From the IMG/VR virus record IMGVR_UViG_2541047434_000040: a stretch of DNA of 5,115 nt. One strand, 5' to 3'. Of the stretch, positions 1,131 through 1,400 are shown piece by piece. Source of the stretch: a virus. Lineage: Duplodnaviria > Heunggongvirae > Uroviricota > Caudoviricetes. The notes under the pieces are model-generated. The model had not been told where the DNA came from and made no database searches. It saw only the letters and a list, made by a program, of their open reading frames with translations. Position 1 is the first letter of the stretch. Every line of letters begins with the position of its first letter. The position numbers were made by a program, and so were the translations under genes.

Positions 1131-1400
1131 TTACTTCATCCCGCCAATATTTTCCCACGTCCCGTCAGCACGCAGGATTTGCAGCGGTCTTACCACGCAC
1201 TGTATCTGCTTTTTATCCGCATCCAGTATCACCACCTGCGTGATTACCCTGTCCTGCTCCGGGATAATGCCATTCTCATCTGACTCCAGGATGTCTGCCG
1301 GTCCCAGTCGCAGCTGTGCTGTAGGCGACTGCACGTGTTCACGGCCATCATGCTTTCCGCAACCACACAGACACTGCATAAGTTTTTTTAGTATATTCAT
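1131..1400 (-). CDS. Hypothetical 89-aa protein; its C-terminal ~65 aa are paralogous to the C-terminal domain of the adjacent tail fibre; Cys-rich N-terminus (CLCGCG)
   Basis: ATG at 1398..1400 preceded by AGGAG with 6-nt spacing, one nucleotide after the tail-fibre stop (1402..1404). Translation MNILKKLMQCLCGCGKHDGREH...LRLGPADILESDENGIIPEQDRVITQVVILDADKKQIQCVVRPLQILRADGTWENIGGMK aligns with the fibre C-terminus (RLGPA, NG, IT, LD, LQ, DG-W). The ORF track extends this frame to 1532, but that part overlaps the fibre gene and is probably not translated. Confidence 0.6.
   Translation of the reverse strand: MNILKKLMQCLCGCGKHDGREHVQSPTAQLRLGPADILESDENGIIPEQDRVITQVVILDADKKQIQCVVRPLQILRADGTWENIGGMK

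Follow-up and report, generated by a model that had tools for sequence, protein, structure and literature searches.

The window analysed here, a stretch of 5,115 nucleotides taken at its full length, is the right end of a lambdoid prophage of the VT1-Sakai/CP-933V type, integrated in mlrA (yehV). It is ~99% identical over its full length to O157:H7-type chromosomes, and its fibre region is 98.4% identical to phage VT1-Sakai. On the minus strand the gene order is J (in pieces), lom (2780-3379), a 437-aa side tail fibre (1402-2715) and a small ORF (1131-1400); the plus strand carries a 5′ stub of mlrA and a dinI-like gene.

The side tail fibre is EPclA, the collagen-like protein described by Ghosh et al. 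2012, which is composed of PfN, a coiled coil, collagen repeats (Gly-X-Y)n and PfC (Pfam PF08400, PF01391 and PF06820; PMC3368898). Its PfC domain (residues 363-426; 1438-1629, minus strand) is the paralogue of the domain encoded by the small ORF. The latter runs from an ATG at 1400-1398 to a TAA at 1133-1131 (minus strand) and specifies a stand-alone Phage_fiber_C (PfC) protein of 89 aa, MNILKKLMQCLCGCGKHDGREH...GGMK. The same gene, 92-100% identical, of 89 codons and directly behind a collagen-like fibre, is known as ORF68 of phage Sp5, L0122 of 933W (92% identical to the protein studied here), H0003 of VT1-Sakai (3′ part) and 'gp59' of phi24B. Nothing substantive separates the copy in the window from these, apart from residues 10 (C in place of R) and 26 (P).

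The minus-strand junction between the two genes reads ACAGGAGAATGAC, then ATG. The fibre stop TGA (1404-1402) is followed by a single spacer base, C (1401), and a Shine-Dalgarno (SD) sequence AGGAG (1407-1411, minus strand) is found within the last fibre codons, 6 nt 5′ of the ATG, as a preliminary description of this DNA had reported. TGA-C-ATG is kept in 77/78 loci selected by the fibre. Among 84 junctions chosen by the small ORF, AGGAG is intact in 81, the three others being one AGGAG-to-TGGAG variant and two IS66 insertions upstream; the start codon is intact in all copies examined. No stable RNA structure was found around the junction and SD (z 0.08). The coupled translation first proposed from this arrangement is compatible with its conservation and with the orthologous Salmonella loci, which combine a 14-nt overlap of the ATG with the last fibre codons, a GGAGG 6 nt before it and a terminator hairpin after the gene. 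Three loci share an IS66-family element at one and the same site, precisely between fibre stop and ATG (L054, about 3970; L076, about 73; L133, about 5927); the small ORF is intact there and separated from the fibre by the element.

A GC-rich hairpin followed by a U-run (1088-1119, minus strand) lies 12 nt 3′ of the small-ORF stop. It has a folding energy of -28.3 kcal/mol (z -4.2; 0/200 shuffles as stable) and is the likely terminator of the late tail operon, so the small ORF is the last gene of that operon here. A simple consensus terminator scan did not report this hairpin. No promoter-like site belonging to the small ORF was found on its strand, and Rfam gave no match in the window.

Several other features of the window were recorded. 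J, the tail tip/host specificity gene (3448-5115, minus strand), is split into at least three overlapping ORFs (3448-3948, 3996-4544 and 4420-5064), and J of VT1-Sakai is also annotated as 'truncated by a mutation'. In this prophage the central fibre is probably defective, and side fibre and small ORF are intact. The mlrA/yehV 5′ stub (223-290, plus strand) marks the prophage-chromosome junction (att site) by comparison with VT1-Sakai, whose record also annotates a LexA box and promoter at the dinI-like gene (515-763, plus strand). A 66-aa ORF (920-1120, plus strand), VT1-Sakai H0002 'similar to YkgJ', overlaps the bidirectional hairpin 3′ of the small ORF; PGAP calls just a frameshifted fragment, and it is probably not a gene.

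Sequence and predicted fold of the small protein

BLASTP aligned residues 29-88 of the small protein with fibre residues 364-425 (25/62 identical, 40%; E 3e-13), and both proteins match PF06820 with nearly the same score (123.4 bits for the small ORF, 123.0 bits for the fibre; cut-off 25). The small-ORF match (E 4.7e-36) places residues 28-89 on positions 1-64 of the 64-position model. The paralogy to the fibre C-terminal domain noticed in the preliminary description is thereby established, at an identity somewhat above the one third estimated by eye. PHROG 576 covers the whole protein (196.7 bits, residues 1-89 on profile 1-89 of 89), including the N-terminus, which is not of PfC type and, as first described, is unrelated to the fibre. 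The preliminary description did not recognise the protein as a characterised family, which is half right: no member has an assigned function, but the family is annotated (PF06820 only, PHROG 576, and a PGAP name, e.g. for WP_001023381, 'phage tail fiber C-terminal domain-containing protein') and had been a subject of discussion by 2016. NCBIfam holds no family for it. Among PADLOC-DB defence models 0 families matched at E <= 0.01, and searches of PDB sequences with the protein and its profile returned chance coiled-coil matches only.

The PfC domain occupies codons 28-89 (1134-1319, minus strand) and is predicted to be all-beta. An AF2 monomer model of the protein shows five strands and a helix spanning residues 3-12; its pLDDT is 64.6, with 73-80 for residues 31-80 and lower values towards the ends. 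Using this query model, which is of moderate quality, the best Foldseek match in the PDB was the Mu gp49 fibre (5YVQ, with its chaperone; E 0.039, probability 0.99). Profile alignment with hhalign matched PfC weakly to the 58 C-terminal residues of Mu S′ (28% identity, E 0.044), and the nine best matches in BFVD comprise six named phage tail-fibre proteins or homologues and three unnamed ones. AF2 of the fibre PfC (pLDDT 53) was too poor for use, and Pfam records no link between PfC and Mu fibre tips. PfC thus looks, from models and scores that are each weak, like a fibre distal-tip fold; the likeness to the Mu tips gp52/S′ (8JU3) and gp49/S (5YVQ, with chaperone gp50) is to be taken as a fold lead rather than homology. 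Separately, a collagen protein of 565 aa from a Logan assembly (P0143) carries four tandem repeats of ~80 aa, the second half of each resembling the C-terminal half of PfC (...VVVLDAD...GILRVRRADGTWxEIP), which suggests at the sequence level that the PfC motif may also be an internal repeat of unrelated fibres.

Codons 1-16 (1353-1400, minus strand; MNILKKLMQCLCGCGK) encode a predicted amphipathic helix (residues 3-12), modelled by AF2 with low confidence, followed by L-x-G-C-x-K. The hydrophobic moment of this helix was exceeded in 59/5000 shuffles. Codons 17-27 (1320-1352, minus strand) form a linker, HDGREHVQSPT, which is unconstrained and absent in the Salmonella orthologue; one allele, P0039, even traverses it in another frame before returning in frame. 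The Salmonella N-terminus is MTIFKKIKH[C/Y]LFGCDK, so that the pattern kept across genera (MNILKKLMQRLCGCGK vs MTIFKKIKHCLFGCDK) has only L-x-G-C-x-K in common. The Cys-rich CLCGCG leader emphasised in the preliminary description is present here, but the string is specific to this copy and its C10 is a minority variant: of the 56 distinct alleles, 49 have R at position 10 and only 5 have C. In E. coli C12 does not vary, and 47/56 alleles keep C14. A further cysteine, C68 (QIQCVVRP), is kept in Salmonella (QIECVYRP), and the fibre PfC has Gly there; C14 and C68 are the two cysteines common to both genera. A Zn/His site was considered and dropped, since the histidines are confined to the unconstrained linker and are absent in Salmonella.

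The L-x-G-C motif resembles a lipobox, and llp adjoins the receptor-binding gene of T5. A free domain of receptor-binding type encoded beside the fibre might accordingly act by receptor blocking, either as a lipoprotein superinfection-exclusion factor (as T5 Llp or phi80 Cor) or as a soluble knob freed at lysis that would mask receptors on debris. We regard this as improbable. Manual inspection of L-C-G-C at residues 11-14 showed no signal peptide: just 7 residues separate K6 from C14, Q9 and R10 among them, and the lipoprotein was rejected on these grounds. As annotated, the C. rodentium allele starts 3 residues before the motif. The lack of a PADLOC match and the location in a late operon, with no promoter-like site of its own, also speak against such a factor, and the small PfC is far more conserved than the fibre PfC, the opposite of what receptor-tracking domains show.

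Selection, distribution and pairing with the fibre

To avoid choosing loci by the small ORF itself, 80 viral contigs were fetched using the last 82 residues of the fibre. Where enough downstream sequence was available (78 fibre ends), an intact 89-codon ORF followed in 72; of the six others, three are frameshifted and three interrupted by IS elements. That fibres with this C-terminal domain are followed by such an ORF, a point the preliminary description had left to a survey, is therefore borne out in the great majority of loci.

Selection was estimated as dN/dS (Nei-Gojobori) on 56 distinct alleles of this fibre-selected sample. The small ORF gave 0.16 overall, 0.11 for residues 1-16, 1.34 for the linker (17-27) and 0.068 for PfC, and the fibre PfC 0.42 at similar synonymous divergence (pS 0.126 vs 0.139). 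Constraint on the tip domain is thus about six-fold stronger in the small protein than in the fibre. The two other reading frames of the small ORF, used as off-frame controls, gave 1.1 and 1.8. The small ORF is a genuine coding phage gene under strong purifying selection, and its start and N-terminus, whose lack of conservation would have counted against it, are kept even in Salmonella. Covariation between fibre PfC and small protein was weak (maximum Cramér's V 0.47; mean 0.17 between genes vs 0.25-0.26 within); it lends no support to an allele-matched interface and is uninformative either way.

Among 5,426 complete E. coli genomes, the small ORF was found at 6,802 places in 698 (median 11 per genome), the fibre 3′ end at 6,160 places in 697 and the 131-nt junction at 6,320 places in 697. 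The functional phages 434 and 933W have the same pair, which follows EPclA in siphoviruses and the longer EPclB in podoviruses of 933W type. An exhaustive profile search retrieved a Salmonella enterica orthologue of 79 aa (62% identity over its full length, 67% over PfC). In two Salmonella viral contigs it follows a fibre of ~215-240 aa ending in PF06820, within a myovirus-type baseplate cluster (gpV-like spike, Baseplate_J, DUF2612). The PfC-ended fibre and the small gene are a conserved two-gene unit. Between genera, PfC identity is 67% from small protein to small protein, 39% from fibre to fibre and 30-43% from small protein to fibre, which points to an old duplication that predates the spread of the module and of which both copies were retained.

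The family of the small protein is taxonomically narrow. A HMMER scan of 1.84 billion representatives yielded 91 matches, mostly fragments and chimeras, and a scan of species-representative genomes just E. albertii and a 725-bp contig labelled Xanthomonas pisi (L161, NZ_JPLE01000138.1). The contig, whose protein product shares 92% identity with the small ORF, is almost certainly E. coli contamination.

Rearranged copies were also collected. A third, truncated PfC fragment lies ~690 nt 3′ of the intact small ORF in L016 (4954-5100), L017, L020, L031, L040, L059, L065 and L066; it is 75-78% identical to residues 37-85 of the small ORF, with stop codons ahead, and looks like recombination debris at the effector-cargo boundary. 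In L022, L050 and L062 (about 3850-4000) the fibre frameshifts within PfC and the shifted frame runs stop-free into that of the small ORF, giving fibre-junk-small-ORF fusions. Chimeras join the small-ORF N-terminus to a fibre-type PfC (P0121), collagen repeats to a small-type PfC (P0059), or a portal or HTH fragment to PfC (the P0150, P0155, P0157 group). All are singletons or small clusters, and are either rearrangements in decaying prophages or assembly chimeras.

Such copies bear on the suggestion that the small ORF itself is left over from an earlier fibre tip, or serves as a silent 'reservoir' cassette for recombination, as Mondal et al. 2016 proposed for fibre variation (PMC5155283). Mosaic prophage tails do leave debris, as the third PfC fragment illustrates, and the chimeras P0059 and P0121 exist, though rare. 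The in-frame purifying selection is nevertheless strong and extends to the 16 N-terminal codons, the start codon and SD are kept as described above, and peptides of the protein have been detected (see below); together these exclude a relic, which the preliminary description had offered as one origin, all the more as selection is stronger here than on the fibre tip. At the nucleotide level the two PfC copies are only 56% identical and no stretch of more than 11 nt matches exactly, so they offer no substrate for homologous exchange within the prophage, and the paralogues are still distinct between E. coli and Salmonella. We consider a relic or reservoir very improbable.

Published deletion, refolding and proteomic data

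The gene has already been annotated and remarked on in the literature. What is added here is the contrast in selection with the fibre tip, the conservation across morphotypes and genera, the correction of the Cys motif and a pointer to proteomic data.

In a series of in-frame deletions that covered the Stx2 phage Sp5, Mondal et al. 2016 found the fibre gene ORF67 to be essential; they listed ORF68, in their description a PfC polypeptide of 89 aa, among the non-essential genes (PMC5155283). Ghosh et al. 2012 found that recombinant EPclA, Col-PfC and PfC alone form correct trimers and that Col-PfC refolds the collagen helix, all with the small protein absent; isolated PfC (residues 363-426) trimerises by SEC-MALLS and appears to renucleate the melted collagen helix (PMC3368898). 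Sp5 can thus do without the small protein in K-12, and so can the fibre in its folding.

These results bear directly on whether the small protein is an obligatory assembly or trimerisation chaperone in the manner of lambda Tfa, Mu U or T4 gp38, a free tip templating the folding of PfC and collagen. Its position 3′ of the fibre is that of tfa-type genes in lambda and Mu, it accompanies the tip domain across different fibre shafts, its nearest solved folds are Mu fibres (one in complex with a chaperone), and the record of phage 434 names it 'tail fiber assembly chaperone', giving neither note nor BLAST evidence for the name. It has, however, no similarity to Caudo_TAP (PF02413): at E <= 1, PF06820 was its sole Pfam match, and Mu U′, the positive control, matched Caudo_TAP at 3e-37. 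As the fibre and its PfC fold without it and the deletion leaves Sp5 infective, an obligatory chaperone is unlikely. The helper role in assembly or trimerisation put forward in the preliminary description is weakened in its obligatory form by the same data; a kinetic, non-essential, Tfa-like help is a rival reading.

Comparison with Tfa (lambda Tfa, Mu U/U′, P2 G; Caudo_TAP) and the T-even gp38 adhesins leads to the same distinction. These too are encoded by small genes directly 3′ of the fibre that move with the tip domain, and a functional analogy is possible. The small protein, in contrast, is unrelated to Caudo_TAP, is homologous to the fibre tip, which Tfa is not, and is dispensable for fibre folding and infectivity in the cases tested. 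With the PfC of EPclA/EPclB, a self-sufficient trimerisation module, it shares PF06820 and 40% identity. It differs from those fibres in lacking the shaft, the tail-attachment domain and the 11-residue C-terminal tail, and from their PfC in being held more tightly (dN/dS 0.07 vs 0.42) and in having C68 in place of Gly.

Evidence of translation comes from a 2026 preprint on the cryo-EM structure and proteome of phi24B. Its supplementary table, in the part examined, lists the peptides ADGTWENIGGMK and VITQVVILDADKK in purified virion samples. Both, the first being the C-terminal peptide, are identical to the small ORF of the window and absent from the fibre. The authors assigned them to 'gp59_start' (39891-40295) with the comment 'Spike or just gp59?', and the main text does not discuss the small protein. 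Mass spectrometry of phi24B preparations, as far as this table goes, thus shows the small protein to be translated and present in them, which speaks against one of the outcomes, no detectable translation, that the preliminary description had named as refuting. The two peptides could stem from a co-purifying contaminant.

A different route of expression would be a programmed +1 frameshift or stop bypass at the fibre UGA-C, yielding a minor fibre isoform with two tandem knobs. The small ORF lies in the +1 frame, so that a shift at the stop would give ...TGE-D-MNILK, and UGA-C, a weak context for termination, is closely preceded by an SD-like AGGAG, an arrangement that resembles prfB. The +1 frame is open over the 44 codons upstream of the ATG (1401-1532), although an open stretch of this length is expected in about 12% of cases by chance, and the search database of the phi24B authors included such a fusion. 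Against this, re-pairing in the +1 frame is not possible for GAA, the last codon ahead of the stop, the Salmonella geometry differs by its 14-nt overlap, and the small ORF has a canonical SD and ATG of its own. Mondal et al. found no frameshift signal (PMC5155283), and the examined part of the phi24B peptide table contains no junction peptide (MNILK...). A fused isoform is accordingly highly improbable.

Possible role of the small protein

We give about an even chance to the small protein being a non-essential partner to the tip of the fibre, in the form of a small and probably trimeric knob, co-produced with the fibre, associated with fibre or virion and affecting adsorption or fibre stability. 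The trimeric knob is suggested by the paralogous fibre PfC.

The mechanism that we infer is as follows. The protein would consist of three parts, an amphipathic N-terminal helix leading to L-x-G-C-x-K, a dispensable linker and a PfC beta-domain. It would be co-transcribed with the fibre on the late tail transcript, which would end at the hairpin just after the small ORF. Translation would use its own SD and begin directly behind the fibre stop, where ribosomes finishing the fibre may reinitiate. With no signal peptide and a place in the late operon, the protein should be a cytoplasmic product made alongside the fibre. It may travel on or with the virion and tune adsorption or fibre stability, under conditions outside K-12 laboratory assays: deletion of the Sp5 homologue had no reported defect, so that any contribution would be subtle or conditional. 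The PfC-ended fibre and the small protein would together form a 'tip module', moved among siphovirus (EPclA), podovirus (EPclB) and myovirus-type tails.

A bolder form of this dispensable tip partner, which we hold only tentatively, is a distinct class of fibre accessory: a shaft-less trimeric tip paralogue that would ride the virion, docked for example through its N-terminal helix and Cys motif, and would alter receptor use or protect the tip. If this is true, the tip module would be portable in EHEC, EPEC, Citrobacter and Salmonella prophages among tails of sipho-, podo- and myovirus type, and would have no relation to Tfa/gp38.

For annotation, the small gene should be called neither 'tail fiber protein', nor a demonstrated 'assembly chaperone', nor a pseudogene fragment. 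Roughly ten copies are present in every O157-type genome, and essentially every Stx phage with a collagen-like fibre has the gene. Host recognition by Stx phages and effector-carrying prophages is unsettled, especially on wild strains bearing O-antigen, and according to the phi24B study BamA is probably not bound by the fibre tip. As a conserved, expressed and proposed partner of that tip, the small protein is therefore a concrete candidate.
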